Below are positions 30,111-55,911 of a DNA stretch of 64,000 bases, in pieces; the stretch's first letter is position 1; every line of letters begins with the position of its first letter. Position numbers and translations under genes: made by a program. The stretch covers positions 160,001-224,000 of the forward strand of contig JAVVGF010000001.1 of assembly GCA_032249235.1 (NCBI GenBank). The letters are read 5' to 3'. Below the pieces are notes generated by a model. It had not been told where the DNA came from and searched no databases. It saw only the letters and a list, made by a program, of their open reading frames with translations. This stretch comes from Thermoproteota archaeon (GTDB lineage Archaea; Thermoproteota; Thermoprotei; Gearchaeales; Gearchaeaceae).

Positions 30111-30196
30111 TAAAGCTATATTTTTTTCCTCAATAATATATGCTTTCAAAGGTAACAAATGGATATATCAGACTTAGGAGATTAAAACTCAATTGA

Positions 30197-36760: not shown

Positions 36761-36856
36761 ATGATTAACTCATTTTGTTTTTTAAAAATTTTTTCGTTGG
36801 TGTCTATAAAGAAATTACCGTAACATTTAATTCTATTGAGGATTAAAAATTCTATA

Positions 36857-38321: not shown

Positions 38322-38482
38322 AAGCAAAAATCTTTGTCATGTTTAAAGCTTTATCTATCTTTTTTCGTTTAATGTTTTATCATTTGTTTCCATACATGAT
38401 TCTTTGCTTAATCTTCAACTCAAGCTTTTTTTCTAACGTAATTACGGATAAGATTAATTTGTCTAAATTCATTTATTTGAAC

Positions 38483-39616
38483 GTGAATAAATGCATCATA
38501 ATAGGAGCTGGACCAGCAGGCTTAACCTTTGCATGGCATGCAGCAAGGAAAGGTTTGAATGTAACTGTATATGAGGGAAGAAAAGTTTTCGCAACGAAAC
38601 CTTGTGGCGAAGCGTTAGCTGGTGATTCATTAAGCGTACTTCCTTTTAAAATCGGTTATATGTACAAATGGATTTTATCGCCTATGCGTTTTGTCGAGCT
38701 CTATTACAACGGTAGGTATTATAGAACAATAAAATCTCCCTTCGGAGAAAACGGCTATATAATAAACAAAAGATTATTCCTTCAAGAGTTGGCGGACATT
38801 GTTGAAAAAGAAGGTGCTAAAATCGAAATGGGCAAGTTTTTTAAACCATCGCTAGATGACGCAGATTTGATAGTTGATGCGTCTGGCTATTTGACAGCTT
38901 CTCGTAATTATTTAAATTTAAGAGAATTATACAATAAAGAATACAGGAATATACCTGTTTTAAGAGATTATGCTGAATCAAATGGAATACTTAAGGAAGG
39001 TTATTTGCTCATCGATCTTTTAGATAGAGGATATTTCTGGATATTTCCTTATGGCAAAGATACTTATAATATTGGAATTGGAGGTCTATATAGCGGTGAA
39101 GAACTAAGAAAAATTTATGAAAAGAAAATTAATCAATTCGAACTTAAGTTAATAAAGAATACTAGACAGGGTGCAAGTGTATCTATAGGTGGAATTATAT
39201 CTAATCAAAGAATAGGTAAATATTATATTATTGGAGAAGCTGCGGGCTTCGTCATGCCAACAACAGGTGAAGGAATACGTTTTTCAATACTATCTGCATA
39301 TGAATATTTCAATAACAATAGCTTACTAAAGAACATTAGAAAAAGAATACAGTTCAATGCTAAACTTTTGAGACTGGCGATCGAATTGGATGATAAGCTA
39401 AAAAGCAAGCTAATTAGCCAAGCTCCTGAAGATTTGATCATGGTATTTTTAGGGGAAAAAAGTGTTTCTACTAATGATATTATAAAGTTCTTATCAGTCT
39501 TTTCAAGAAATCTTAGCACAAGTCTTCAAAGATCACTTTACTCTATTGTTCAATTTTTAATATCTAACAAAGTTGATACAAAAAAATATGTATTGAATTC
39601 TAATGTAAAACATTAA
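38483..39616 (+). CDS. Geranylgeranyl reductase-family FAD oxidoreductase (paralog 2)
   Basis: IIGAGPAG, KPCGEA, GYFWIFP, IGEAAGFVMPTTGEGI; likely start GTG 38483 (track 38339). Confidence 0.85.
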   Translation: MNKCIIIGAGPAGLTFAWHAARKGLNVTVYEGRKVFATKPCGEALAGDSLSVLPFKIGYMYKWILSPMRFVELYYNGRYYRTIKSPFGENGYIINKRLFLQELADIVEKEGAKIEMGKFFKPSLDDADLIVDASGYLTASRNYLNLRELYNKEYRNIPVLRDYAESNGILKEGYLLIDLLDRGYFWIFPYGKDTYNIGIGGLYSGEELRKIYEKKINQFELKLIKNTRQGASVSIGGIISNQRIGKYYIIGEAAGFVMPTTGEGIRFSILSAYEYFNNNSLLKNIRKRIQFNAKLLRLAIELDDKLKSKLISQAPEDLIMVFLGEKSVSTNDIIKFLSVFSRNLSTSLQRSLYSIVQFLISNKVDTKKYVLNSNVKH

Positions 39617-39646
39617 TATTTTTATGTAGAGATTTCCTTAAGTTTT

Positions 39647-42600
39647 ATGATGAAATTTTTGTCGAAGAAAGTTATAGTAGTCGCTTTGCTAATTATCCTT
39701 ATCTTAGGAATTCTGCTTTATTTTCTGCCAGACATCGGCTATATGATATTCTTTAAGAATCCTTCAATAGCTTTAGTAGGCGTTGAAGGTAAAGGAGTAC
39801 AAGGAGATTTCGTATTGATGAGCGCATTGCTTAACGTTACAAACAATGCAGGGGTATCTGTAGTTTTAAAAGAAGCGAATGGCGAAGTATATTATAAGGG
39901 AGATAAATTTGGAACTTTCAATTATAAAGGTTCTCTTTTCATACCTTCTAACGGTCAAGTCTCTATTAATGTTACAGTATTATTAGATTCTAAATCTCCT
40001 ACTTTGAAACAGCTTATTCAAGATATTCTAAAGAATAATTCCTCTGATATATCTTACAAAGCAAGCTTATTAGTTACATCTTCATTCTTCTTCTTAAGCT
40101 TTAGTAAAGAAGTAGAAATAGCTGGCAAGTATATACTTTACTTGAAAGACTTTGTAAAAGTAATAGGATGGGAAATAAACGTCAAAAAGATAAATTTAAT
40201 CTCCTCAAATAATAATCCCTTATTAAATGTAACAGTTAATGCAAAGAATTTATCTAGTTTAGATATTCTTATTAAACAAGCTAATATAACTATTTTTTAT
40301 AAAAAAGAAGCTTTAGGACATTCGAAATTGAATAATCAAATAGCCATAAAAGCTAATGAAAGTAAGGAATTGAGTCTTATCTTAAATTTAACTAATATTA
40401 ACTTATTAAGAGATGCGATTAGGGATTTAATAAATAGCTATTCTATAAGTTTTGATTATATTGCAGATTTAAAGGTTTATTCTTATTATTATTATTTAGA
40501 AACAAATTATACAATTAAGGGAAAGCAAGAATATAAACTATCAGAAGTAGCAAATGATTTGAGACTTAACAAAATAATTATAAACCAAAATAGTATTTTA
40601 GCAGATATCTCCTATTTTAATAATTTAGGTGTTCAATTCTTTGTCAAGGATGTAAATGCAAATATCTACTTTAATAATTCACTGGTAGGCAAAATTAATG
40701 CAACTATAAATAAAGAGATCATACCTGCTACGGAAAATCGATTTCTTATTTCAGCTATTCCAATTGATTTATCTAGTTTAATAGGCTTTATTTTGGATAA
40801 TAAGACGGTTAGACTATCAGTACAGGCTGACATAAGAGTATCAATTTTTAACGAGACTTATTTAGCTCATCTGAGTCTTGAAAAATCTATAAGCTTAGAT
40901 TATACCTTAAAAGCTAGTATAAACAACGTTAGATATGTTGCAGCCAATATTTTGGAAGTCGATGCAAATTTAATTGCTACTACGAATCTTATAACAGGTA
41001 ACTTCACATTGAATAGTGCAAGTTTCAATGCATATTTGAATCAAACTTTTGTAGGAGATGGGATATTACAGAACCCTACAAAAATTTATCTGAATAAACC
41101 TTCTCAAATAAAAATAAGAGTTTATCTACATAAAGATATCATTCCAATATTAATAATAAAATTGTTAACAAATTCTTCTTTTGATTTAGTTCTTAAGAAT
41201 GCCATATTTCAAGTTAATTTTGCAAATAACACATATCCCGTCAAGCCTAGCAAAGATATAATTGTTTCTGCTCAACCTTTTACTTTAGATATCAACATTT
41301 ATAATCCATCTTTCATTGCCTTATCTACTACAACAGATAATAAAATAGGAATTAAGGCAAGTGTAGCGATAAACATTCCGAATGTTTATAACTTACCTAT
41401 TATTATAAAGTCAGCAAATGTCACTCTTGTTGAAGATGAATTTGGACAAATAGGATATCTCTACATAACGAACGATCAACTTATATATCCACAGTATAAT
41501 CTTGTTGGCGATTTCATAGCAAATATAGATAAATCTAAGCTTCAGTTATTGATCCAAAAAGCTATAAATAACAACGGCCTTAATGTTACCTTTAAAGATA
41601 TCGTTATAACAGTATCTATACTTGACAAGACAACTACAATAAAGTTGAGTAAAACATTTGCATTAAAAGTACCTACACCTTTAGTTCTCGAATCTAATCT
41701 AGGAATTAAAAAAGTATCAATAGGGCCTTCGCCTAAATCTTTCTTGATAGACACAGATTTCACTATAAATCTAAAAAGTATGTCTGTTTCCAATGTATAT
41801 ATTAGCGACGCTCGGGCTCAAATATACTTTAAGGATAAACAGATTGGCTACGCGTACATAACAATTAACAGAGTTGTTATCAACTTACCTTTCACTTATA
41901 GTGGTAAGGCTTTAATTAACATTACAGACGAAGGTGCAAGCATGTTAGCTATTGAAATTTTAAAGCAAAATCCTATTACAGTAAGCATTAAAAATATTCA
42001 AGTTAATCTCAAAATCACAGATATACCAATTTCTATAGCTTTACCATCAAACATTGTATTTCAATCAACAATCAAGCCAGATATTAATATACATGTAAGC
42101 GATTTTACTATTCGTTCACCTGGTAACGTTATAGATGCGTTTGCCCAACTTAATTCAACTCTTATTAAATTAAACGTTGACAGAATAGATTCTCTTTCTG
42201 CAAATATTATCGATGAAAATGGGAAGATTTTAGGTTATATTTTAGGTGTTTCCGTAGTTAACAATCCAAATTATATATTTCAAGGAATGATTGAATTGCA
42301 ACTAACGCAGCAAGGACTTGATTCATTAGCACCTAAGCTAATGAATAACAATACTTTAATTATTTTCGCTAAAAATATTGTTATAAATGCTTATATTAAT
42401 AATGTTAAAATTTATATAAATGATCCTAATATATATATTATAAAAATCTCAACAGATTTTCAATATAATTATACTTTTAATATTATTGATTTAAATGCTT
42501 ATCCTCCTGGTACTTTGTTTAAATTGAATATAACAATCGATTATCAAATAAAGAATGGTGTTAATACACCTTTTAGTGTTATTAAAGCAACAATGAAAAT

Positions 42601-43291
42601 ATATAATTTAACAGATTTCTATTTAGGGGATGCTATAGTAGATAAGCCTGTATATGTTAGCTCTTTGTCTGGAAGAATTAATTTCAATGCTTCCTTCTAT
42701 TTACGACCTGAAGGAGCTCCTTGGTTTGCATCAAACCTCGTTAATAACGGTACTGTTAGGATTAAGATTAGCGAAATCTACGCTACTGTGAAATTTTTCG
42801 ATTATAACGTAACTGTACCTATAAAAGGTTTAACATATACATACAAAACCAATCCTGTAACTATAAAAATTGAAAAAATAACGATAAAGAGTGTTAATCC
42901 CTTCGCAAACAGCGCAGTGGTAGAAGCAACTATTTTAGTGTATAATCCATTTAAGTTCCCAGTTACTATTACCTACATGTCTGGAAGCAATTATAGTATA
43001 ACTTTCCAAATTTTCGAATCTCAAAGAGAAGCTCATCCAGGTTATTATCTAGGATATGGCTGGTATTCTTCACAGACTTATGTTCCTGCTTTAAGTAATG
43101 TTACTTTATATCCTGTAACTGTTGTATTAACAGATGTTCTACATTTATTCCTTCCTCCTCACGGAACGCTAGTCCCTTTACATACAAGTATATATGTCGA
43201 TGCTCTGAATGGAAGAGCAGGAATAAAACTATATGATCTTTACTTTACTTTTAAGTTTGAAAAGAGAGAAATATACGTGACTTATCCTTAA
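39647..43291 (+). CDS. Giant N-anchored protein of about 9 tandem LEA_2/WHy-like repeats
   Basis: Single N-terminal TM; ~130-aa units such as LNVTNNAGVSVVLKEANGEVYYKGDKFG...IPSNGQVSINV and ILVYNPFKFPVTI, each followed by an amphipathic helix. Confidence 0.75.
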   Translation: MMKFLSKKVIVVALLIILILGILLYFLPDIGYMIFFKNPSIALVGVEGKGVQGDFVLMSALLNVTNNAGVSVVLKEANGEVYYKGDKFGTFNYKGSLFIPSNGQVSINVTVLLDSKSPTLKQLIQDILKNNSSDISYKASLLVTSSFFFLSFSKEVEIAGKYILYLKDFVKVIGWEINVKKINLISSNNNPLLNVTVNAKNLSSLDILIKQANITIFYKKEALGHSKLNNQIAIKANESKELSLILNLTNINLLRDAIRDLINSYSISFDYIADLKVYSYYYYLETNYTIKGKQEYKLSEVANDLRLNKIIINQNSILADISYFNNLGVQFFVKDVNANIYFNNSLVGKINATINKEIIPATENRFLISAIPIDLSSLIGFILDNKTVRLSVQADIRVSIFNETYLAHLSLEKSISLDYTLKASINNVRYVAANILEVDANLIATTNLITGNFTLNSASFNAYLNQTFVGDGILQNPTKIYLNKPSQIKIRVYLHKDIIPILIIKLLTNSSFDLVLKNAIFQVNFANNTYPVKPSKDIIVSAQPFTLDINIYNPSFIALSTTTDNKIGIKASVAINIPNVYNLPIIIKSANVTLVEDEFGQIGYLYITNDQLIYPQYNLVGDFIANIDKSKLQLLIQKAINNNGLNVTFKDIVITVSILDKTTTIKLSKTFALKVPTPLVLESNLGIKKVSIGPSPKSFLIDTDFTINLKSMSVSNVYISDARAQIYFKDKQIGYAYITINRVVINLPFTYSGKALINITDEGASMLAIEILKQNPITVSIKNIQVNLKITDIPISIALPSNIVFQSTIKPDINIHVSDFTIRSPGNVIDAFAQLNSTLIKLNVDRIDSLSANIIDENGKILGYILGVSVVNNPNYIFQGMIELQLTQQGLDSLAPKLMNNNTLIIFAKNIVINAYINNVKIYINDPNIYIIKISTDFQYNYTFNIIDLNAYPPGTLFKLNITIDYQIKNGVNTPFSVIKATMKIYNLTDFYLGDAIVDKPVYVSSLSGRINFNASFYLRPEGAPWFASNLVNNGTVRIKISEIYATVKFFDYNVTVPIKGLTYTYKTNPVTIKIEKITIKSVNPFANSAVVEATILVYNPFKFPVTITYMSGSNYSITFQIFESQREAHPGYYLGYGWYSSQTYVPALSNVTLYPVTVVLTDVLHLFLPPHGTLVPLHTSIYVDALNGRAGIKLYDLYFTFKFEKREIYVTYP

Positions 43292-45192
43292 GATATTGAT
43301 TGTTTTTTGTTTTTTGAGCGTGTAATTATTAATCCTATTAAGAACATGATAATCGCTATCAATCCTAAAGCTGGAATCCATTCATAGATTAGAAATAACT
43401 CTTTATAGCTCGTTTTTGAAGGAACTTTTACTGGTATTATGTTTGAGAAATTGCTCTCGCCATACTCGTTGAAAGCTGTTATAGCATAGTAATATTGAAC
43501 ATCTTTGGAAGCTGAAGTGTCGATATAGGAATAAATGTTGCCTTCAGTTGTTGCGATTTTTTTCAATGAGTTTGGACTTTCTCCTCTATAAATATTATAT
43601 CCTAAAACAGGAATGTAGAATGGGTTATTATCTATCCAACTCAGTGAGGGATAGCCTGAAACGCTAGCAATTAAGCTAGGAGCTTGAGGAGGTTGTGGAT
43701 TTATTCCAGTATTTATCTTTATAGTTAAAGAAGAAACCAAGTTGAAATTATTCGAAGCTGAAACTTCTAAGCTTATATTATACAGACCGTTAGGGAGGTT
43801 ATTCAAATAGAAAGTGGCTATCAGGCCATTTCTATTTTCAAAACCGATCAATGCAGTATAAGCTTTTGGATATTTAGTTACAGGTGCAATTGTAATTTTG
43901 AAAAATTTCAAATATGTTGAATTGTTCGCTGCTATAACTGCTACTGTACCATACAAATCAAAAGCAGTAACGTTTGATTTAGAAGTATATTGAATTTTAT
44001 CTATTGAGGAAAAGTATGCGCTTGCATTATTGAATACAATAATATTGTTTAAATCTGAAATCGAGGAATCAACTGCGATAATTTTTGCATTATTTCTAAG
44101 TATTACTTTATCTACAATTGAACTCTTATTTAACATTAATTTCGAATTGCCTTTTGCATAAATTAATCCAATCAACCTTACATTGTATGCTTTTAATCCA
44201 ACATTATCATCAATATATATATCTATATTAGAAGAGTTTGCTAAATACACATCTTTAATTTTACTAAAATAAAGTCTCCATTTTTTAATCTCCGTATTTA
44301 TTAAATTAATGAATGTTTCATTTGATAATATAAAATTTTTCTTTAAAAAATATCCTGTACTTAAATTTGTAATTTTACTATTAATATCAAATATAGATAT
44401 AATGAGATTTACAGAATCATAAATAGTATAATTTCCTTTATTTAATAGTAATATTTCAGAATTTAATTCAGGAGGATTTATATAACTGTTGAATACTTCT
44501 ATTCTATTATTCTGGAAATATTGTGGTTTTAAGAGAGTAGAATTCCAATATTTAAAATAACCATGAGGGATTTGGATAGATACGGAATTTCCAAAATTAA
44601 TTGCCAAACTTATTGAGAACGTTGAAGAGTTTATGAACGCATTTATGCCTTGATCATAAAGAATCAAATCAAATCCTGAAGAACTTCTAATGGATAAGTT
44701 AGAGGAAGAAAGAGGAGTGATTCTAATTTTTCCATAGAATGCAACTAAAGAAGAGTTCAAAGAACTTTCATTTAAAACCATTTCAAAATTATTCGATGAA
44801 ATACTTGAATTTGTTAGTATGATTTCAGATTTGTTAAATGACTTAAATTGTATTCCATAATCTACATTTAATTTTGTATTATTTAAAATTAAAGAAGATT
44901 TATATAGTGTAATGTTATTTTTAAAGTTTATCTCAGAATTATTTATAACTATTTTTGAATTATTATTAGCTTGTACCATTCCACTTATAGTTATATTCGA
45001 GGAATTATTTATAATTAGTTGTGCATTGTTTTTTAAATATATATCACATATATAAAGACCATTTGTATTTATAGTATATTGCTGTGAATCAAGATTTATA
45101 TTTTCGCAAGAAGGTGCCTTGACGATTTGACTTGAATTGAAAATATTCAAAGCGAGCAAGATGAGTATTAAGTAAGCCTTTTTATCCTCCAT
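43288..45192 (-). CDS. Surface protein with beta-helix-like region, fibronectin type III domain and C-terminal TM
   Basis: Signal peptide; N/S/I-rich solenoid-like repeats; LSW...GYNIYRG...YIDT...YYYAITAFNEYGES FN3 signature. Confidence 0.8.
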   Translation of the reverse strand: MEDKKAYLILILLALNIFNSSQIVKAPSCENINLDSQQYTINTNGLYICDIYLKNNAQLIINNSSNITISGMVQANNNSKIVINNSEINFKNNITLYKSSLILNNTKLNVDYGIQFKSFNKSEIILTNSSISSNNFEMVLNESSLNSSLVAFYGKIRITPLSSSNLSIRSSSGFDLILYDQGINAFINSSTFSISLAINFGNSVSIQIPHGYFKYWNSTLLKPQYFQNNRIEVFNSYINPPELNSEILLLNKGNYTIYDSVNLIISIFDINSKITNLSTGYFLKKNFILSNETFINLINTEIKKWRLYFSKIKDVYLANSSNIDIYIDDNVGLKAYNVRLIGLIYAKGNSKLMLNKSSIVDKVILRNNAKIIAVDSSISDLNNIIVFNNASAYFSSIDKIQYTSKSNVTAFDLYGTVAVIAANNSTYLKFFKITIAPVTKYPKAYTALIGFENRNGLIATFYLNNLPNGLYNISLEVSASNNFNLVSSLTIKINTGINPQPPQAPSLIASVSGYPSLSWIDNNPFYIPVLGYNIYRGESPNSLKKIATTEGNIYSYIDTSASKDVQYYYAITAFNEYGESNFSNIIPVKVPSKTSYKELFLIYEWIPALGLIAIIMFLIGLIITRSKNKKQSIS

Positions 45193-45299
45193 CTAATCTT
45201 TAATGAGGATTTGTTATTTAAAGATATTTATTAAGATTCGATATCCTTTCATTCGTAATTACAATAAAGAATATAATCGAATGAAACATCTTAATATTA

Positions 45300-46571
45300 G
45301 TGAATTACGAAGTAATAGTAATTGGTGGAGGCCCTGCAGGGGCATATAGTGCAGCTCTTCTATCCAAATATGGTTATAATGTTTTGCTGATAGAAGCAGG
45401 GTCTTATAAAAGATACAAAGTATGTTCTGGTGGCACTCCTCTTCGCTCAGTTGAACTTCTTTCAAAATTGGGCGATCCTTCAAAAATTGTTGAGAGAGAG
45501 ATTAAAGGTGTGAATATATTTATAGAGAACAAAGAAGTTATTTCAACTTATAAAGAAAAACCGATTGGATATAGCTATTATAGAAGCGAACTAGATCAAT
45601 GGATAAGAGATAGAGCTTCAGATCTGGGTTCAGTTGTATATCATGAAACAATTGCTAAAAAGATTAAAATAGAAAGAGATTTCGTTTATGTTAAGTGTTA
45701 TCAAAAAGGGTTAGCTATTGATTTTAAAGGTAAACTTTTGATAGGTGCTTTTGGAATCAAGCCTGATTTATTGTTACAATTAGGCATAAAACCCACAGAA
45801 TATCTCATATCTGTTCAGAGCGAGTTTAAAGGTGATACTCAACATATGGAAGAAGAAATAAGATCCTCTTTTAATTTTCTTATCCATCCTGAATTCTCAA
45901 CATTTAGCTATGGTTGGATATTCCCAAAAAGCGAAGGTCTATCGATAGGTATAACGGATCGTATGGAAGGAAATATTGTATTAGAGAGATTTAAAAAAAT
46001 GTTATCTCAGCATCCTTTGGTTAAGGAGAAAATAAAAAACATGAAAATAATGCCAGTTAACGGTAAAGATGTTTTAGCTCACTTGAATCCAAATCGTCCT
46101 CTAAAAAGGACTTTTGGAAGAAGATTTGTTTTAGTAGGAGACGCAGCTGGCTTTGCAGATCCTATAACTTGGGAAGGGATATATTTTGCATTGAAGAGCG
46201 GTGAAATAGCTGCGAATGCTTTTTCAAAATTGCTTGAAAAAGGAAATATCAATGATAATTCTACTTCGCTCTACGAAAAGATGTGGAAAAGAGATTTCGG
46301 TAAAGTTTTTGAGATTGAATGGGCTGTTAAGCAACTCTTATGGGGAAAAGATCTAACCAATAAATGGCTCACTATAGCGAAATTTTTCAAGAGTAAAGAA
46401 GAAAGATATAACTTATTGAAAGAAGAACTTGCTCTGAGCATGTCGATAGCACCAGTTATAAAAAAGATGTCTACAATAGAGAAATTAAATATCGGCTTTA
46501 AATTAAAAGGTTATAAACTCTTAAGAAAACCCATTAATTTTGTTTATGTTTTCAAAACTTTGTTTTCGTAA
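45300..46571 (+). CDS. Geranylgeranyl reductase-family FAD oxidoreductase (paralog 3, full-length type)
   Basis: VIGGGPAG, KVCSGG, RSELDQW, YGWIFPK, LVGDAAGFADPITWEGI. Confidence 0.88.
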   Translation: MNYEVIVIGGGPAGAYSAALLSKYGYNVLLIEAGSYKRYKVCSGGTPLRSVELLSKLGDPSKIVEREIKGVNIFIENKEVISTYKEKPIGYSYYRSELDQWIRDRASDLGSVVYHETIAKKIKIERDFVYVKCYQKGLAIDFKGKLLIGAFGIKPDLLLQLGIKPTEYLISVQSEFKGDTQHMEEEIRSSFNFLIHPEFSTFSYGWIFPKSEGLSIGITDRMEGNIVLERFKKMLSQHPLVKEKIKNMKIMPVNGKDVLAHLNPNRPLKRTFGRRFVLVGDAAGFADPITWEGIYFALKSGEIAANAFSKLLEKGNINDNSTSLYEKMWKRDFGKVFEIEWAVKQLLWGKDLTNKWLTIAKFFKSKEERYNLLKEELALSMSIAPVIKKMSTIEKLNIGFKLKGYKLLRKPINFVYVFKTLFS

Positions 46572-46574
46572 AAG

Positions 46575-49500
46575 TTAAGATAGAATGGCGCATGTTTGTG
46601 GTACAGGTATCTTAGGTGTTACAAAATTTGTAAGAAAGGTTACATCATAAACTGTAGTAGTAGTAGAACCTTTGGCATAAACCATTAAGCCTGTAATGCA
46701 TGCCTTAACTTGTAATGGGAATAGACTTATAATTGAATAAGATAGATTCGAATAAAGAGGATTAACGTTTGTTATAGTAACAGTTACACCTTGTATAGTT
46801 ACAGATTGATTAGGCCCAAGTGTTATTGTTTGGGATATGATGGCTCTACCTAAAAAGGCTCCAGATGAATGGTATACGTCGACTTTAATGTTTGAAAGTG
46901 TCACAGTAAAGTTGTATGGATTTTTAAATGTAACATCTGCTTGAACAGTGACTGATCTAACCACTACAGAGGTACCAGATAATCCCCAATCAATATTTCG
47001 AACTACGATGTTAGATATAGAAACTGATAAATTGGGGCCAGTTATTGGAAGATCTACATCAACGAATGGAATGTCTCCTTCTATATCATAAATACTAACA
47101 TGCATTGTAATATTGCTCAATCTAACAATAACTAGTCCACTTGAAAGTAGATTTTGACCGAAATAGGCGAAACCTTCTTTATTCAGTGATACGGAAGCTT
47201 TAATATTTAAGGAAGCAAACTTTCCTGTAAATGTTCCTTGTGTTATAAGCTCACCTGAACCTATTGCTTTCCAGGAATTCATATAATTAGCCATAACGAT
47301 GAATTTTGCATTCTTGAAGTTTACGGGCGCATTTATACCTTGCTTAAGTGTTACATTAAGCAAGCCTTCTCCAATTATATTAATTCCTTGGCTTGATGGA
47401 TATACTGAAAAGCCTTTGAGTGTGGCGTTTGTTTCTATTTCTATCAAAGAACTTACTCTTAAGAATACGGTTCTAAATAAGAATATATTCACTTCTTTAC
47501 CTCCTAAATTAGCTACAACATTCACATCTGAACCATATAGCAAGGTATCTGCTCCTTTAATTAACGGTCCAATATAAGTTAAAGGATTTTGTGATACAAA
47601 GTTAATTAAAAACTTTCCGTTTAATAAGGAACCATTGACATTTGAATATACACTTAACAGTGATCCGTTTGCGAAATAAGTAAAGGTGTTGCCATCATTG
47701 AGTTTAAATTTTAACGATAATATGTTAACTGGAATTTGGTAGTTTGGCGAATATAATTGCGCCTCAACTTCTGCTTTTTTACCAGGATAGAAGTTGAATT
47801 GCGATATCTTAATTATTAATCTAGGAAAAAGTTCGGCTTTTATAGTATATGATGCTATGTAAAGTTTTAAAGGAAGACTAAATAACTTGAGATATACCGT
47901 TATATTCTTTACAGTTAAGTTTAGAAAGTCATTTTGTAAAGCCTGTTGAGCGATCCATCTCAATCCTTCTTCCGTTATTGTAACATTCGCATTTGCTACA
48001 AATGTTTTACTTCCGCTACCTACGAGTATAACAATAGGTATTACGTTTTCATATTGTCTAGGTTGAAGGGTTGCATTTTTGGCTATAAGCACTGAGCCAT
48101 CAGAAGAATAAACATCATATGTGACTTGATAAATGTATAGCTGAATAGGAAAATCAGATTTTAAATCTATAGTAACATTTAAAGTTATTTTGAAAATACC
48201 CAATGAAGGTGCTGTAATAAAGCCTGCATAAACTCTTACTCCAACCAATCCAAGCGGTGTAACTTCTATATCTTGAGATACTCTTAGATTGACAGGCAAA
48301 TACGTATTGCCAACTTTTAGCGTAGCGTTCATACTTTTTATATAAAATTTAACCTTTCCTTGAGTTGCAAATAGACTGAAGATCTTACTAGTAGATGGAT
48401 CATTGACATTAAGCAATATTGAGACGTTGCTATATGTCTCATCACTCAAAAGAAGACTGCTCGATTTGATCTTAAGAGTTGAATTTGTTTGAGGTTCGTA
48501 TATCACAAAGGATGGATTGAGCAAGGAAAGATTCAGCTTACTGACGTTAGGTGCTTTTACGAGGAATTTCAGAGTAACATTCAAGTTATTGTTGTCTGGG
48601 GATACTTGAATGTTTGTAACTTTTATTTCGAAATTAATGCCTAGACTTTGATAATCAACGGGTATACTTATCCTTCTATCTGAATGTATCATTATATCTT
48701 TATTGAAAATTTCAATTGTTCCATTAACATTGAGAATATCTAGCGTAATTGATTGTCCGCTGAAAAATAGGCTAATCAATGATGGAAGGCTTTCTTTATT
48801 TAGATCAAGAATGAGCGTAATGTTATTTAATTTTTCACCCATGACATCAATATTTGAAAGGTAACCAATGCCTAATCTTTCGTTACCTGAATATACTGTG
48901 AATAATAATTGCTTTATCTTGAAAAATAAATCAAAATTATCGGATAAAGAAAATGTAACATTCGAATTAATCAATAATTTCGTCTCTTCTAAAAATTTTA
49001 TGTTATTAACTTTAGCCTGCATGTCAAAATCAAAATTGATATTTTTATTGATTGTTGCGTTAAATGAGGCTTGTATATCACCGAAAAGCAAAGCTACTTC
49101 TCCCTTCCAAGTTAGAACAATTGTTTTATTGTTCACTAAATCATTTATAGCTCCGCTTATTCCATCAGTTTCTATATATGCATTGACAATGAGCCTATTA
49201 TAATCATGAGGCCTTAATTCTATTGGTCCAGAATAATTTAAGGAACCTATATTTTTATTATTGTAATAAATGTTTCCTTTCATTGAAGTTAACGTTATTC
49301 CAAGATTAGTAGGATTATTAAGAATAATTATTGCTTTTGCATCGTTGTTCTTAGGTATAATTATTTTATCAACAGATACAAAAGATTGGATACTTTCCAA
49401 TTCAAACTTAGCTTTTTCCTTAGGAATATGTAAATTGATAGTTAAGAAGCTAAATACTGGAACAGCTACTTTTATGTCTCCTTCATAATAGAAAGAACTG

Positions 49501-49871
49501 TTACCATTTGTTAGCAGCTCACTTAATAATCTATTGAACGCACTTCCTGTAATAACCTTTAGCGTTACATTTAATGGTGTAGGTTTGCCTGCAGGTATTT
49601 CTATTTCTCCTACCTTTATCTCACCTATTATTCCTTCTTCATTAAATATTATGATATCTCCTTCTTTTACATTAGCTGATATTGAGGCTTGGTTAATTAA
49701 TTTTACAGATATTTCTATACTATTAGGACCTGTCTGTTTGACAATGTATATTGAATCTATTTTTGGTGGAACATATAGGAAAATCGGCAATAAATATACC
49801 GTTAAGGAACCAAGAAGAATTAAGATTAATGACATAATTGCGAGCTTTTTATAAAGCGTTTTCATTATCAT
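46575..49871 (-). CDS. Giant N-anchored protein of about 8 tandem LEA_2/WHy-like repeats
   Basis: N-terminal TM; ILNNPTNLGITLTSMKGNIYYNNKNIG and FKNPYNFTVTLSNIKVDVY...FLG units. Confidence 0.75.
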   Translation of the reverse strand: MIMKTLYKKLAIMSLILILLGSLTVYLLPIFLYVPPKIDSIYIVKQTGPNSIEISVKLINQASISANVKEGDIIIFNEEGIIGEIKVGEIEIPAGKPTPLNVTLKVITGSAFNRLLSELLTNGNSSFYYEGDIKVAVPVFSFLTINLHIPKEKAKFELESIQSFVSVDKIIIPKNNDAKAIIILNNPTNLGITLTSMKGNIYYNNKNIGSLNYSGPIELRPHDYNRLIVNAYIETDGISGAINDLVNNKTIVLTWKGEVALLFGDIQASFNATINKNINFDFDMQAKVNNIKFLEETKLLINSNVTFSLSDNFDLFFKIKQLLFTVYSGNERLGIGYLSNIDVMGEKLNNITLILDLNKESLPSLISLFFSGQSITLDILNVNGTIEIFNKDIMIHSDRRISIPVDYQSLGINFEIKVTNIQVSPDNNNLNVTLKFLVKAPNVSKLNLSLLNPSFVIYEPQTNSTLKIKSSSLLLSDETYSNVSILLNVNDPSTSKIFSLFATQGKVKFYIKSMNATLKVGNTYLPVNLRVSQDIEVTPLGLVGVRVYAGFITAPSLGIFKITLNVTIDLKSDFPIQLYIYQVTYDVYSSDGSVLIAKNATLQPRQYENVIPIVILVGSGSKTFVANANVTITEEGLRWIAQQALQNDFLNLTVKNITVYLKLFSLPLKLYIASYTIKAELFPRLIIKISQFNFYPGKKAEVEAQLYSPNYQIPVNILSLKFKLNDGNTFTYFANGSLLSVYSNVNGSLLNGKFLINFVSQNPLTYIGPLIKGADTLLYGSDVNVVANLGGKEVNIFLFRTVFLRVSSLIEIETNATLKGFSVYPSSQGINIIGEGLLNVTLKQGINAPVNFKNAKFIVMANYMNSWKAIGSGELITQGTFTGKFASLNIKASVSLNKEGFAYFGQNLLSSGLVIVRLSNITMHVSIYDIEGDIPFVDVDLPITGPNLSVSISNIVVRNIDWGLSGTSVVVRSVTVQADVTFKNPYNFTVTLSNIKVDVYHSSGAFLGRAIISQTITLGPNQSVTIQGVTVTITNVNPLYSNLSYSIISLFPLQVKACITGLMVYAKGSTTTTVYDVTFLTNFVTPKIPVPQTCAILS

Positions 49872-49901
49872 TTAATTTAAAGACTATCTCTGTTTATAAA
49901 A

Positions 49902-52900
49902 CTAACGATACCGTACAGGTAAATTATTAACAGTATATTGAATTATAGTCTTTAAATTCCCCACCTTAATTGAAATCAATACTTGAATATCAACGTTCAT
50001 TTTTAGCGTGTCATTTTGAGAATTGTAATGTCTTAATACGTAAGAAACGGATACATCAGGTATGTTTATTTCTAAATCACTTATTATAGTTGATGAATTA
50101 GGTCCTAGTGTTATGTTGCTTAATTGCGTATTTCCTACAGGCTTACCATCCATTGAATCATATATATTTAAGATAGCCAAATCTAATTTGACGGTAAAAT
50201 TATAAGGATTTATTATTTTAATCGTAGATTTTGCTTTTATTTCGTTACCTGAAATATACATTACCTGAAATTCTAATATTTCAACTTGTACAGGCTTACT
50301 TTGGTAAGTAATCGTAAGATTTAATGGAAGGCTTGCTGTGTAATATTGATCCATCAAATTTACGATCACTATTATTTTATCGATGGTTACTTTTACTGTT
50401 TTGCCGTTTGCAATCAATGTAGCAATATAATCTAACCTAGGTCCGCTTAAAAGATTTAATTTTGCTGTTGCAATATAGGTATCCTTGCTTATTGGAATAA
50501 CTTCAGAAATGGTACCGTTTGCCACTTCAATTCTAAGCTCATCTTTAATAGTGAAACTAGCATTAACAAGCTTTGCATCTACAATGTTATTCGATATGGT
50601 GAGCCTAAATTTTACATATACAAAGTTATCGCTAATTGAAGGTGGAACATTTATATCTATTACGCTTACTTCAAAGCTCAAAGGCTTAATGTTTGGTATG
50701 ATTGTGATGAACACTGAACTTTCTGCAAATAAATCGTAATTTTCTCCTAATAGTGATATTGAGCCTTTAATGTTTTTACCAATAACAGTTGCGTTGTAAC
50801 CGAGAAGGATTTTAGCTAGATTAGTTTGGTTTTTATTCGTCAAAACTATCAAACCATTTCCTTTGAAAGAGGAATTAATATAAGATGCATTAGATAATTT
50901 AATATAACCTATTATGTTAGAAAATTCATCAGTTACATTTCCTTCAAAATTATTTACGCCAAACGGGACTTCAATTCCCTTTAGTTTCATATCAAATGAA
51001 AAACTTAATGTTTTGCCGTTTATTATATTAATATTGTTAAGATAAACCTGCAATAAAGGTAATAAAATTACATTTAAAGTTACATTTCTTATTAACAATA
51101 TAATACTAAATGTCCCAATTTTTACAGTTATATTTGCATCAAGTATAATTAAGTTTGTTTTTCCTTTTTCTAAAAAATCTTTGATCATCTTTCCAGTTAA
51201 ACTCTTTGATAATTTAACTACGCTAGTAGTGCTAAAGTTATATGATTGTTCATTAGATATGTATTGATTAATATCTTGTTTAAAATTTTCTAATACTTTA
51301 TCACCTTCGATTGTAAAAACATTCATGTAAACATTAACAAGGAAAAATTTTTCCACTTTTAATTTTGATTTTAGAGATATATTGAGATCAAGTTTGTATG
51401 AGCTATCAAAAGAACGTATGTTAATTAGATAAGCGTTTGCTTCAAGAATATCTAAAGGAGATATCTTTAGTAAAATATTCAAATTGGTTTGCTTTGAGAT
51501 CGTTTTGCCATATACATTTACTTTTAAATATCCTCCTTGGATTTGCAGTAAAAGCGAACCATTTTTTGCGAAATCTTGAATGAGAGGTTTAACATTAGGA
51601 TCGTTTACTCCCAAAGTTACTGTAGTAAAGAAATTAGATGAATTGGATAGATCAATCGGGCCATTTATTTTTTGATCGAACACCAGCTTCCCATTGTTGA
51701 AATTTAACTTAAACACTGCCTCGTCGATAGTCATTGGTATACCAGTAACGTTTAAAGAGAGAAAACTGAAATTGAAGCCAATAATGAGAGTATCTTTATT
51801 TTGATCATACATAATCGAATATGGTTTTACTCCTATAATGAAGCGGGCATAGCCCCAATCTAGATTTATTGAATACTTTCCTAATTTTAAATTAACTATA
51901 TCAGTTCCAAATGCTAATTTGGGCTGTTCAACAAAATTAAGAGATAGTTTAACAGTGGAATTTTTTAAAAATTCATCTACGAATAAATAAAAGTTATCTA
52001 TTATGGGTAATATTACTATTTTACTATATACAATACCATTTGATGCGCTCGAATCTGTTATTCTGAAGTCCGCTATATAAGTTTCATTCAAAATCACTTT
52101 ACCACTTCCACCTGCTAGGTTTATTCCATTTAATGGTAAAGATGCTATTTTGCTACTTAAATACCCTGTAATCTCTAATCTCTCTGGATATTTAAAATAC
52201 TTTATCGAATTTATAGTAAAATTAGAAAATGTTGGTATTTCAATATTTCTTGATAATGAAATATTTAATGGAATCAATATTGTTCCAAATTTAATTTTTG
52301 CATTTATAATTGAATTCATCAAAGGATTAGAAAAAATTATGTTACCTAAATTATTTATATAACTAGTAGAATTGTAAAATAAATTTATTATAAAATTTTG
52401 ATTAGCCTCAACTTCATAAGATTTATTAGAATAAAAGTGTATTATATCATTATTGTATATTTTTAAAACTCCACTTATATCTTGAATTATAAAGCTTGAG
52501 TTTAAGGGATTTTCGATAATTACATTGATTGTGTTTTTATCTATGCTCACTGATTTTATTGTATTATTTAACGAATATTGGTAAAGGAATGTCGAACCTT
52601 TTATTGTTGTTGGGATTTCAAAAAATAAAAATTTTGTATTTACATTACCTTCATAGCTGACTTCAATGTTTCCTTTAGAGAAAAGTCCATTCAAGACGCT
52701 ACTGAAATATTTGATATCTTCTTTATCTACGAAGGCACTTAACTTGATTGAGTTTTCACCTGAATTTATATCTAATGGGTTATTTATGGTAATTGTAGCA
52801 AATTTATTATTCTCATACAGTATGTTAATATGTCCTTTATTAATACTGATTGCTTGGAAATTATTTATGATAACTAATGACGCATCAATTACTAAATTGT

Positions 52901-53039
52901 CCCCCAATTGCTTTATTCCTAAAACTTTTACACTTTTTATTGAAGGCTGAAATATAAACATCGGAAATATTAGAAAGACGGAAACTATAATTACTGCAAT
53001 TAAAACTAGGGCAATTAATTTTCTCTTTCCTATACGCAT
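49902..53039 (-). CDS. Giant N-anchored protein of about 8 tandem LEA_2/WHy-like repeats
   Basis: Likely start ATG 53039 (MRIGKRK plus TM; track 53096); IENPLNSSFIIQDI and IINPYNFTVKLDLAILNIYD...VG units. Confidence 0.75.
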   Translation of the reverse strand: MRIGKRKLIALVLIAVIIVSVFLIFPMFIFQPSIKSVKVLGIKQLGDNLVIDASLVIINNFQAISINKGHINILYENNKFATITINNPLDINSGENSIKLSAFVDKEDIKYFSSVLNGLFSKGNIEVSYEGNVNTKFLFFEIPTTIKGSTFLYQYSLNNTIKSVSIDKNTINVIIENPLNSSFIIQDISGVLKIYNNDIIHFYSNKSYEVEANQNFIINLFYNSTSYINNLGNIIFSNPLMNSIINAKIKFGTILIPLNISLSRNIEIPTFSNFTINSIKYFKYPERLEITGYLSSKIASLPLNGINLAGGSGKVILNETYIADFRITDSSASNGIVYSKIVILPIIDNFYLFVDEFLKNSTVKLSLNFVEQPKLAFGTDIVNLKLGKYSINLDWGYARFIIGVKPYSIMYDQNKDTLIIGFNFSFLSLNVTGIPMTIDEAVFKLNFNNGKLVFDQKINGPIDLSNSSNFFTTVTLGVNDPNVKPLIQDFAKNGSLLLQIQGGYLKVNVYGKTISKQTNLNILLKISPLDILEANAYLINIRSFDSSYKLDLNISLKSKLKVEKFFLVNVYMNVFTIEGDKVLENFKQDINQYISNEQSYNFSTTSVVKLSKSLTGKMIKDFLEKGKTNLIILDANITVKIGTFSIILLIRNVTLNVILLPLLQVYLNNINIINGKTLSFSFDMKLKGIEVPFGVNNFEGNVTDEFSNIIGYIKLSNASYINSSFKGNGLIVLTNKNQTNLAKILLGYNATVIGKNIKGSISLLGENYDLFAESSVFITIIPNIKPLSFEVSVIDINVPPSISDNFVYVKFRLTISNNIVDAKLVNASFTIKDELRIEVANGTISEVIPISKDTYIATAKLNLLSGPRLDYIATLIANGKTVKVTIDKIIVIVNLMDQYYTASLPLNLTITYQSKPVQVEILEFQVMYISGNEIKAKSTIKIINPYNFTVKLDLAILNIYDSMDGKPVGNTQLSNITLGPNSSTIISDLEINIPDVSVSYVLRHYNSQNDTLKMNVDIQVLISIKVGNLKTIIQYTVNNLPVRYR

Positions 53040-53193
53040 CAATATTTTATTAGTTTCTTTCTTAAAAAGTATTGAGAATAAATTTTGAAATATCAAAGGG
53101 TGGTTATTTTTCTCGATTTGCCTTTCTTTAATACTATGGTAATACCCATAGTTTATGTATTAATTTTTTAAAGATGTCTGCGAAAGTGTTACT

Positions 53194-55911
53194 ATGAGAA
53201 GAATACTTCTTTCAATACTGATTTGTGGATTAATACTGGGGGGCTTATTCAATATTCAATCCTCTTACGCAAATGGCCAATATCAATCTTCAAGCTCAGG
53301 CGGTCAATGGGTTAGTCGCTATAATTCGCCTTATAATAATCCCTATTCTGAAAAACTCTATAGTTCCATTGCAGATAATTCATCTATCTCACTTTCGAAT
53401 CTAGGTGATCCTAATGGAGAAATCGCTTCTAAAGCATTAATATACAACAATATCGCGTACTTCGTAACCAAATCTGTAAGTATTTACTCTTTAGATCTTT
53501 CAAGCTATAACTATAAATCTATGAATCTGTCATTATCAAATAATATACTAAGCTCTACTCCTGCTCTTGTCGGTGAAAATTGTAATACTATCGCTGCAAT
53601 AGATGGATTGTCTTTTGTTAATTTTATAAGATTTGGGCCGGGCTTGAGTATTTCATTGCTAAGAAAATATGGACCTTTGAATATTTATTCAAATCCTGTA
53701 ACGCCTAGCAATTCTAATTTTTTCATAACGAGCAATTCTTCTCCTTCAGGTTATATCTATGTTTTTGGTTGTGATGGAACTATTAACAATATATATATGT
53801 TATCACCTTATGAGCAACCTGAAAAAGGAGTTGCGGTTAAATCTAATACAATATACGTACTCACAAATTTTGGCTCTGTAAAAGCTATTGGTAATGTGAA
53901 CTGGAACGCCCAACTCGGATTGAAGTTTACACAAGAACCAGTTATCTATAACGATCGGATTTTCGTAAGAGGTGTAATGTATGAAGATGGTTCCGAAATG
54001 ATAGTAGCGTTGAATTCAACTAACGGCTCAACTATATGGTCTTTAAGAATTCCAGCAACCATACTAAGTCCGATGGTAATATTTCAAGATAGAATTTATT
54101 TCATAACCGAAGGACCTTATATCTACAGCCTTAATGCTTCAAATGGTGCTGTTCTAAAAACAAAGAAGCTTCAATCTATTTCTTTTACTGGTATTTCGCC
54201 AGATATGATAGCGATTTCAAGCGAATTGGTCTTCACAGGTATTTACAATGGCAAATTTTCGCTCGTTTATTATGATGTTATTGATGATTTGATCAATTAT
54301 GATTATTTGAATGCTAACTTAGGTAAACCAATAGGGATTAGTTTAGGTAATGGTAAAATTATTGTTACTTTTCAAAAAGGAATTGAACAATTACCCATAA
54401 AAGCTAAAGCTTCACTAAAAATCTATGTTGAACCCGCTTCATATAACTATAGCGTAAATATTAATGGAACAAGCTATATTATACAACCAAACAATACATT
54501 CATACTTTACCTCTTCCTCAAAAGACCTTCTTCTCTTAATTTAGAAATTAAAAATAAGATTATAATAAACGATCAGAAATATCTCGGATTTTATAGATGG
54601 GAAAACGTTTCACAAAGCAATTTCAATAAATCAACAGTTTACATTAATCAATGGGATTCAATTGTAGTTAAAGCTTATTATAGATATTATCTTTTAACAA
54701 ACTTAAATTTGGATTATAAAATCATAAGTAGTCAGCAAATCAACGTAACGCCTAAAATAAATATAGTTGAATACAATTCGACGAAAGTCTCACTTTTCCT
54801 TCCACAAAATACGACATCTAACTTCACTATTTATGCACAACCCGTAGTTGTGATTAACAAGACTTCAAGTCTTGTGTTTCAAAAATGGAGTGATGGAGAT
54901 AAAAATTACATAAGAAAGATTTATGTGCAGGCAGGTTCGACTGTTTATTTCACAGCACTATACTCATTATCTAATAACTATACGCTAACTTTAATAGTGA
55001 ATCCATCAAATTATGCTTCTAAAATTTTACAAAGTTTATCAACAAATTTGAATAATGTTACTTCTATGGTTTGGATAGTCCCTCCAAATACAAATGTGAC
55101 TTTTGAAATCAAGCAAACTATAATATCTTTAAATAGTACAGCTAGATTAGCATTTGCCTATTGGTCAGGCGATATTTCTTCTAACGACACTAAAATTACA
55201 TTTTCAGTATCTCATACCAACTTTACTATAGTATTAAATTTCCAATTACAAAAATTATTCATAGTAAAGCTAATTAATATAACATATTATAATAATCAAA
55301 TAATTAATAATGGTACTTCAACAATCTTAAGTAAGTGGTATTCTAGTTCAAATTATAATTACACTTTGAAAATTAATAAAATAATTTATTTAAATAAATA
55401 TGAAAGATTATTAATTTCTAATTATACAATAAACACTATTAATTCAAAAACTAATGAGACATCTAATTATATTATTTCTACGATAACTTTGAGTAGTGGA
55501 ACTACACTTATCAAAGTGGTATATGTTTTGCAAAAATACACACAGCTTCTAATTATTTTCAATGATCCAGAAGTTAAATATATATTTATAAATGGAACTA
55601 AAGAAGATATAATAAAAAACAATAATACTTATCTAGTAAATAAAACTATGTGGACTTCGAATAGCATAAAATTCTATATTGAGGCAGTTGAAAAGGTAAA
55701 ATTAAGCGATTATGAGTATATTGTTTTTAAATCTTTTAATAATACATCCTCTTCTTCGATCTCTGTGAATTTAAATCCGGGTGATAAAGTTACTTTGTAT
55801 GCTCAGTATCAAAGAGAAAATGTACTAGCTCTTTCGAGTAGCATCTTGGTAATATTGATATTGGTCATAGGTATAATGGTTATTGCCATTCTAATAAGAT
55901 GGTTGATGTAA
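53194..55911 (+). CDS. Surface glycoprotein with PQQ-like beta-propeller, beta-sandwich repeats and C-terminal TM
   Basis: Signal peptide; ALNSTNGSTIW and SLNASNGAV propeller motifs; F.KWSDG / FAYWSGD repeats; TM tail. Confidence 0.8.
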   Translation: MRRILLSILICGLILGGLFNIQSSYANGQYQSSSSGGQWVSRYNSPYNNPYSEKLYSSIADNSSISLSNLGDPNGEIASKALIYNNIAYFVTKSVSIYSLDLSSYNYKSMNLSLSNNILSSTPALVGENCNTIAAIDGLSFVNFIRFGPGLSISLLRKYGPLNIYSNPVTPSNSNFFITSNSSPSGYIYVFGCDGTINNIYMLSPYEQPEKGVAVKSNTIYVLTNFGSVKAIGNVNWNAQLGLKFTQEPVIYNDRIFVRGVMYEDGSEMIVALNSTNGSTIWSLRIPATILSPMVIFQDRIYFITEGPYIYSLNASNGAVLKTKKLQSISFTGISPDMIAISSELVFTGIYNGKFSLVYYDVIDDLINYDYLNANLGKPIGISLGNGKIIVTFQKGIEQLPIKAKASLKIYVEPASYNYSVNINGTSYIIQPNNTFILYLFLKRPSSLNLEIKNKIIINDQKYLGFYRWENVSQSNFNKSTVYINQWDSIVVKAYYRYYLLTNLNLDYKIISSQQINVTPKINIVEYNSTKVSLFLPQNTTSNFTIYAQPVVVINKTSSLVFQKWSDGDKNYIRKIYVQAGSTVYFTALYSLSNNYTLTLIVNPSNYASKILQSLSTNLNNVTSMVWIVPPNTNVTFEIKQTIISLNSTARLAFAYWSGDISSNDTKITFSVSHTNFTIVLNFQLQKLFIVKLINITYYNNQIINNGTSTILSKWYSSSNYNYTLKINKIIYLNKYERLLISNYTINTINSKTNETSNYIISTITLSSGTTLIKVVYVLQKYTQLLIIFNDPEVKYIFINGTKEDIIKNNNTYLVNKTMWTSNSIKFYIEAVEKVKLSDYEYIVFKSFNNTSSSSISVNLNPGDKVTLYAQYQRENVLALSSSILVILILVIGIMVIAILIRWLM

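Follow-up and report, generated by a model that had tools for sequence, protein, structure and literature searches.

Three paralogous genes encoding N-terminally anchored arrays of eight or nine LEA_2/WHy units in a Thermoproteota archaeon

Results

Three genes encoding anchored arrays of tandem units

We analyzed 64,000 nucleotides (nt) of a Thermoproteota archaeon of the family Gearchaeaceae, namely positions 160,001 to 224,000 of contig JAVVGF010000001.1 in assembly GCA_032249235.1 (1.43 Mb, 91% complete), a stretch that we refer to as the window and whose own numbering we use throughout. This window contains three long genes, A, B and C, each predicted from its open reading frame (ORF) and translation to encode an N-terminal membrane anchor and then eight or nine LEA_2/WHy units without gaps. 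Gene A (39647..43291, forward strand) encodes 1214 amino acids (aa), with nine units at residues 45-178, 179-308, 309-428, 429-552, 553-686, 687-818, 819-946, 947-1078 and 1079-1214. Gene B (46575..49871, reverse strand) encodes 1098 aa, with eight units at residues 40-168, 169-291, 292-416, 417-548, 549-688, 689-826, 827-958 and 959-1098, and gene C (49902..53039, reverse strand), which lies 30 base pairs (bp) upstream of B on the same strand, encodes 1045 aa counted from its ATG, with eight units at residues 38-165, 166-290, 291-408, 409-538, 539-668, 669-792, 793-924 and 925-1045. An initial annotation, made from the sequence alone, had placed three paralogous genes in 39647-53039; its coordinates were right, and BLASTP showed collinear relationships between A and B (22.6% identity over 1086 aa, expectation value (E) 5e-30) and between B and C (20.5% over 1071 aa, E 7e-8), with a shorter alignment between A and C (25% over 277 aa, E 1e-7). 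As judged from these alignments, A, B and C are old, strongly diverged collinear paralogs.

Hydropathy scanning agreed with the initial annotation in finding a single N-terminal transmembrane segment, and no C-terminal anchor, in each of the three proteins. The anchors cover residues ~9-27 of A (39671..39727, forward strand), following a lysine-rich N terminus, residues ~10-28 of B (49788..49844, reverse strand; the AlphaFold2 model has a helix at residues 3-32), and residues ~8-25 of C (52965..53018, reverse strand), those of A and C being placed by the scan together with the sequence. A short basic stretch precedes the hydrophobic helix in all three. C contains a second hydrophobic stretch near residue 641, which we read as strands, not as a membrane helix, because the unit alignment puts it on the last strands of a unit. 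There are no cysteines in A or C, and hence no lipobox in either sequence; B has two, both within its last unit and both kept in the consensus of the B ortholog alignment. Lipoprotein-type anchoring is predicted for two-domain archaeal LEA-2 proteins (Levine, 10.1101/2021.03.12.435176, cited here and below from the portions available to us), and with no cysteine after the hydrophobic segment this type of anchoring cannot apply to A or C. A type-IV-pilin-like signal was also considered and rejected; in such signals G, A or S comes after a basic residue, ahead of the hydrophobic stretch, and by eye this motif is absent from A, B and C. All three are predicted to be type-II membrane proteins, with a basic cytoplasmic N terminus and one uncleaved transmembrane helix.

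Number and relationships of the repeat units

Counts of about 9, 8 and 8 units had been proposed for A, B and C, and profile searches bore this out, with units of ~125 aa. A two-unit hidden Markov model (HMM) recovered nine more units at E < 0.05; iteration brought the totals to 9, 8 and 7 in A, B and C, the seven of C all at E <= 0.001, and a laxer scan (domain E of 0.1) identified eight in C. All the motifs quoted in the initial annotation are found in the translations, and alignment of the 25 units showed N at one aligned column in 19 of them, NP in 5/25 and G in 16/25. An N-P(-N) motif near the start of the LEA_2 domain is known from the WHy literature.

The mean unit-to-unit local alignment score was 43.9, compared with 33.0 +/- 6.2 (maximum 57) for shuffled partners. 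Positionally equivalent pairs scored far above this null (A3-B2 133, A6-B5 103, B8-C8 97, A2-B1 89 and A8-B7 87, where the number after the gene is that of the unit), which indicates that the eight-unit array predates the gene duplications. Units 2 and 3 of C are very divergent, and the best unit-to-unit score of C3, at 43, falls within the shuffled null. The extra, ninth unit of A is, on the same alignment evidence, an internal duplication, since the best match of A1 is A2 (score 100). The last unit had been suggested to be the best conserved; this is true of B and C, where B8-C8 is the top pair, and fails for the three genes overall, as A3-B2 is the best pair and A9-C8 (score 40) lies inside the null.

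LEA_2/WHy identity and predicted fold

Pfam family PF03168 (LEA_2; cut-off 25.4 bits) matched A with 34.3 bits and B with 58.1 bits in three stretches, and gave no match at E <= 1 to the whole of C, which is joined to LEA_2 by its collinear homology to B. When the single units were checked against the same profile, 7 of the 25 matched at E <= 1 (best 9.9e-8), so that the match expected from the initial annotation is present. Other families gave single weak unit matches, namely Tag1_C (0.046, 1/25), Vac7 (0.036, 1/25) and the TMEM106 family. Our unit profile matched 3but_A (E 0.003), and the ESM Atlas clusters nearest to B are archaeal two-domain LEA_2/WHy proteins (score 0.91). These proteins, such as a 311-aa protein of Thermococcus litoralis and Af_0446 of Archaeoglobus (PDB 3BUT), belong to the same family by Pfam and by profile and, in the descriptions available to us, have the same order of an N-terminal hydrophobic segment and then tandem extracytoplasmic units; A, B and C differ from them in having eight or nine units instead of two, and in that only the seven units above reach E <= 1.

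For B, an AlphaFold2 model built on an alignment of 22 sequences (mean predicted local distance difference test score (pLDDT) 81.5, predicted template-modelling score (pTM) 0.48) has five strands, a helix and then at least two strands in 8/8 units, with all helices outside the anchor short (6-14 residues). In a separate model of two units of B (pLDDT 85.6, pTM 0.70), both units have the LEA_2 topology, and the pTM of this model suggests a defined junction between adjacent units. Five strands, a helix and then two or more strands is the topology described for LEA-2 (10.1101/2021.03.12.435176). The earlier assignment of these units to LEA_2/WHy is therefore supported in two ways, with PF03168 passing its cut-off for A and B and the topology of the B model agreeing. 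A Foldseek search with the di-unit model returned generic tandem beta-sandwiches first, with 3but at rank 21 (E 6e-4, template-modelling (TM) score 0.55 on the target) as the best single-domain match, and the matches listed for the whole 1098-aa B model were generic proteins with multiple immunoglobulin (Ig) domains only (TM 0.09-0.16).

Predicted cell-surface location and possible expression

Sequons (N-x-S/T) occur in A, B and C at 2.55-2.68 per 100 aa, which is 1.7-2x the shuffled expectation. Elsewhere in the window, other predicted surface proteins have 3.5-4.1 per 100 aa, and cytoplasmic proteins 0.2-0.7, at or below their shuffled expectation. The positive-inside N terminus and the enrichment in sequons place the arrays outside the cell, and their ectodomains are probably N-glycosylated.

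In one metatranscriptome library, we found contigs that match parts of A and B at >= 95% identity. As evidence that A and B are expressed this is weak, because DNA can occur in such libraries, and gaps in the coverage, for example much of C, carry no meaning. Some RNA-library contigs contain joints at which the sequence goes back (853 nt at 41175-42027, in A, and 328 nt at 52657-52984, in C; X9 only), and these are probably assembly chimeras between similar units. The locus was found in 8 DNA sequencing runs, and the runs containing it carry the label of hot springs metagenomes.

Distribution and divergence of the arrays

In the genome of the window, the unit profile matches only A, B and C. 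With B as the query, 5 of 41 relatives match; excluding the genome of the window, these are 3 of 8 in the family and 1 of 3 in a sister family, and none was found in other families of the class among these 41 relatives. The unit profile found nothing in five further members of the family, including the 95%-complete congener G001. We considered that the absence from G001 might be an artefact of a contig end beside the ortholog of a neighboring reductase gene, and rejected this, as an unrelated convergent ORF follows there. In a sample of the phylum, 8 of 151 genomes match, with arrays in only one besides that of the window; the other matches are single units in frames of 155-342 aa. A locus search with a narrower alignment (labelled A3, as distinct from unit A3) returned only two related loci.

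Array orthologs share 39-42% identity within the genus and 32-41% within the family. For comparison, fumarase shares 84-86% within the genus and 76-77% within the family, and another large surface protein 47% and 40%. This patchy presence and low ortholog identity indicate that the arrays, at the level of sequence, are accessory and fast-evolving, like exposed surface proteins.

A proposed envelope rod

For the fast-evolving A, B and C we favor a role as accessory rods of the cell envelope, which would serve to space, tether or stick the surface, and we place this reading at about even chances of being correct. It is the one that best fits their location outside the cell, sequons, repeated sandwiches, fast divergence, patchiness and several paralogs. 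Each seven-stranded sandwich would have its termini at opposite poles, with units joined by linkers of 2-3 residues, so that the array would form a fairly stiff rod of units placed end to end; given the N-terminal anchor and the gapless units, this geometry is a fair inference. We estimate the rod length at roughly 4 nm per unit, or ~30-40 nm in all. Rising from the membrane, this rod would cross the quasi-periplasmic space as far as the surface layer (S-layer) or beyond, and could attach the surface to the S-layer, to a neighboring cell or to mineral. Crenarchaeal S-layer stalks of the SlaB type have an N-terminal signal peptide, a coiled coil and a C-terminal membrane anchor. A SlaB-type stalk was rejected for A, B and C, because these have their anchor at the opposite end and lack both a C-terminal hydrophobic helix and a coiled coil.

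Several observations weigh against the envelope-rod reading. The patchy presence speaks against an essential S-layer spacer, we did not identify an S-layer gene or a partner of the arrays, and the anchors of A, B and C are N-terminal whereas those of crenarchaeal stalks are C-terminal. The pTM of full-length B is only 0.48, the rod geometry being drawn from secondary structure and pTM, and with models of this kind structure search alone cannot separate LEA_2 from Ig-like folds, because Foldseek ranks generic tandem sandwiches above 3but. Finally, the archaeal LEA_2 domain 3BUT has a hydrophobic groove (10.1101/2021.03.12.435176), which would make a ligand-binding role possible.

A conserved C-B gene pair and the possibility of co-assembly

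The tandem of C and then B is kept in two genomes of the sister genus, G005 and G007, with spacers of 30-48 bp across three genomes of two genera, and A is located elsewhere in both, so that only the C-B gene pair is conserved. Because of this conservation, C and B are probably made together. Examination of the genes beside the orthologs in G002, G005 and G007 identified CBS-domain, SfsA, alcohol dehydrogenase, aminotransferase, RadA-like and phosphoribosyl pyrophosphate (PRPP) synthetase genes, which we regard as housekeeping genes. A 129-aa ORF lies directly 5' of the C ortholog on the reverse strand in both G007 (L010, 12413-12802) and G005 (L009, 14982-15371); the one in G007 contains two CBS domains and shares 4 nt with the start of C, and there is no such gene upstream of C in the window. 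The number of array paralogs is three in the genome of the window and four in each of G005 and G007, and in G045 arrays are found on at least five contigs. The fourth paralog, of 1199 aa and nine units, lies on the reverse strand at 4504-8103 of L014 in G005 and at 6965-10564 of L015 in G007, and has no counterpart in the genome of the window.

The gene pair also bears on whether B and C, possibly with A, lie side by side in a multi-chain rod or fibre, with their similar lengths reflecting co-assembly. The C-B tandem on one strand in three genomes of two genera is consistent with such a hetero-oligomer, as are the eight positionally matched units of both B and C and the recurrence of several paralogs per genome. 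Against it, A is elsewhere in the relatives, and each of the three genes has a TATA-like box of its own: TATTTTTAT upstream of A (39617..39625, forward strand, 22-30 nt 5' of the ATG), TTTATAAA upstream of B (49893..49900, reverse strand, 22-29 nt 5' of the ATG and within the 30-bp C-B spacer) and TTTTTAA upstream of C (53062..53068, reverse strand, 23-29 nt 5' of the ATG). These boxes were read from the sequence and are weak evidence, as the genome is only 30% G+C. On balance we consider a hetero-oligomer rather unlikely; co-assembly of B and C would be compatible with envelope rods and with the lipid-binding rods discussed below.

A TTG-extended frame of C reaches 53096, and P0008, the database representative of C, begins at the ATG. 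The position of TTTTTAA favors, as weak evidence, a start of C at the ATG at 53039 with a leaderless mRNA.

Neighboring genes and a possible lipid conduit

Three paralogs of the geranylgeranyl-reductase family (36836-37903, 38339-39616 and 45300-46571, all on the forward strand) are located around the arrays within 10 kb. Of these, the third alone scores above the TIGR02032 cut-off of 158.8, with 173 bits, and a hydrophobic stretch lies in an N-terminal extension of the second. A 1049-aa MMPL/RND-family transporter is encoded nearby (27009-30158, reverse strand). An alternative to the envelope rod, raised in the initial annotation as a possible bridge-like lipid conduit, is one in which each LEA_2 unit would have an open hydrophobic groove like that of 3BUT and these grooves would align into a conduit or a multi-site carrier for hydrophobic ligands. 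Its cargo would be isoprenoid lipids, lipid-linked glycans or other hydrophobics, taken from the membrane to the S-layer, to vesicles or to a partner cell, and the rod would be a functional analogue of the AsmA-like and RBG bridges.

Besides this neighborhood, the membership of the units in LEA_2 favors such a rod, as does 3BUT, for which a groove measuring 27 x 6 x 7 A is described between its strands 1 and 7 (10.1101/2021.03.12.435176). However, LEA_2 lipid binding is an unverified proposal in the literature, and in the portions of the sources available to us, no groove was seen in a crystal structure of the TMEM106B lumenal domain (PMC10409496) or, according to Levine, in plant nuclear magnetic resonance (NMR) structures (10.1101/2021.03.12.435176). 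The context of lipid genes is not conserved: it is not kept beside the array orthologs in G002, G005 and G007, and counterparts of the reductases are on different contigs in the congeners G001 and G002. A connection of the arrays to the geranylgeranyl-reductase genes was therefore considered and rejected, as the cluster is specific to the genome of the window and carries no weight.

In overall layout, and in this only, A, B and C resemble bridge-like lipid transfer proteins, which include the AsmA-like TamB and YhdP of bacteria and the RBG proteins VPS13 and ATG2 of eukaryotes. TamB and YhdP combine an N-terminal membrane anchor with a beta-rich extracytoplasmic rod of ~1000 aa, and this resemblance favors a conduit. 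In contrast to these proteins, the modeled units of B appear, at the level of secondary structure, to be separate sandwiches that each include a helix, and not a single continuous beta-groove, and neither AsmA, Chorein nor any other bridge family matched in Pfam at E <= 1 or was among the Foldseek matches listed. Further points against a conduit are that no acceptor membrane is known, a single-membrane envelope being assumed, and that fast divergence and patchiness are unlike a core machine of lipid homeostasis. A dedicated lipid conduit is thus less likely than accessory envelope rods, and lipid- or ligand-carrying rods of either form are in our view improbable.

Our analysis of the window also identified other predicted surface proteins. 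Between A and B, a 634-aa protein without a Pfam or NCBIfam match is encoded on the reverse strand (43288-45192), and the 3' end of its gene overlaps that of A convergently by 4 nt. A C-terminal hydrophobic helix and 4.1 sequons per 100 aa, the densest in the window, make it a probable glycosylated protein of the cell surface; both this gene and the reductase gene at 45300-46571 are unrelated to A, B and C. Divergent from C, a 905-aa protein (53194-55911, forward strand) with a PQQ_2/BamB-like beta-propeller match has hydrophobic helices at both its N and C termini and 3.5 sequons per 100 aa. Two sequon-rich surface proteins with C-terminal anchors, one of 929 aa with DUF11/CARDB/TRAP_beta matches (20048-22837, reverse strand) and one of 1164 aa with an InlB B-repeat-like domain and 47% identity in a congener (22900-26394, reverse strand), could be candidates for the S-layer. 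A 528-aa radical SAM protein is encoded at 58168-59754 on the forward strand, where B12-binding radical SAM families match below their cut-offs.

The habitat label and the family of the units raise a further alternative to envelope rods, in which the arrays act as classical LEA_2/WHy stress protectants and form a hydrated, membrane-tethered layer against water, heat or acid stress with no specific partner. WHy and LEA14 proteins are described as supporting desiccation-type stress responses (10.1101/2021.03.12.435176), and a hot spring would be a fitting habitat. The stress-linked LEA_2 proteins in the literature available to us are, however, mostly of one or two domains, and the need for eight or nine positionally conserved units would be left without explanation. 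We regard protection of this kind as quite improbable.

Related arrays in archaea and fungi

A search of 1.84 billion representatives with the unit profile identified 265 proteins at E <= 0.001. Our unit counts cover 147 of the 150 matches listed, those of the genome of the window being left out. Among these, 64 of 147 have two units (median 296 aa), 30 have at least five and 12 have at least seven, and all 12 listed relatives with at least seven units have an N-terminal helix. The view in the initial annotation that prokaryotic LEA_2 proteins usually carry one or two domains is thus correct as a statement of the mode, although longer arrays are uncommon and not unique. Collinear alignments to P0013 (E 1e-70) and P0016 (E 1.5e-25) span the whole of B, which shows that the eight-unit design extends beyond the family of the window.

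Two domains are typical of archaeal LEA-2 proteins, and gapless arrays of up to 15 units, like DUF3712, are described as almost wholly fungal; yeast Tag1 has three units and a Ustilago maydis protein has 15 gapless LEA-2 domains (10.1101/2021.03.12.435176). Our unit profile retrieves P0058, which is U. maydis UMAG_02810. Fungal DUF3712/Tag1 arrays, in the descriptions available to us, also have a type-II anchor and then gapless units of the LEA_2 superfamily, and differ from A, B and C in three respects: A, B and C lack DUF3712, they lack a long cytoplasmic N-terminal tail, and they are placed at an archaeal cell surface instead of in the lumen of a vacuole. No match to DUF3712 was found in A, B or C at E <= 1 in Pfam, the nearest signal being the Tag1_C match in one unit reported above, and BLASTP gave no collinear alignment to the eukaryote-like arrays.

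The initial annotation had suggested that the arrays of the window may bear on the origin of eukaryotic LEA_2 arrays. This is not supported for A, B and C, which lack DUF3712; closer candidates are three metagenomic proteins, P0021, P0022 and P0029, which have seven units, an N-terminal anchor and DUF3712 at 1e-26 to 1e-34. P0021 (DUF3712 1.6e-34) is named 'DUF3712 domain-containing protein [Candidatus Hodarchaeales archaeon]' and shares with A, B and C the N-terminal anchor and gapless units, seven in this case. However, the DUF3712 signature is missing from A, B and C, and the alignment of B to P0021 is weak (E 6e-4) and limited to the first three units. The clade of arrays to which A, B and C belong carries the LEA_2 signature only. 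Among the other representatives, the 1900-aa P0017 has a strong DUF3712 match.

Discussion

A type-II-anchored gapless array of LEA_2 units is known from fungi and has apparently not been described for archaea. In our full-text literature search, description of long archaeal LEA_2 arrays was not found, and the supplementary tables of the Levine preprint may list examples. Here, such arrays occur in a Thermoproteota lineage, with eight or nine positionally conserved units and three to four paralogs per genome. Among the proteins of the archaeal quasi-periplasm, of which little is known, they would form a new class of architecture.

The most far-reaching possibility is that gapless LEA_2 arrays are a third, independent bridge-like conduit for lipids or glycolipids beside the AsmA-like and RBG bridges, through which isoprenoid lipids or lipid-linked glycans would leave the membrane and cross the quasi-periplasm, and that the Hodarchaeales DUF3712 arrays are the prokaryotic source of eukaryotic Tag1/DUF3712. 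We consider this combined proposal highly improbable. Interest in the arrays would rise sharply if a continuous groove or a bound lipid were shown. The Hodarchaeales-labelled DUF3712 arrays, taken by themselves, may bear on a possible Asgard-archaeal ancestry of the fungal Tag1/DUF3712 proteins.

The LEA_2/WHy domain is very widespread without an established molecular function, and TMEM106B, the human member, is of importance in neurodegeneration and in the entry of viruses. Long archaeal arrays such as A, B and C would offer a compact, thermostable system in which the ligand of LEA_2, its groove and the joining of its units could be studied.

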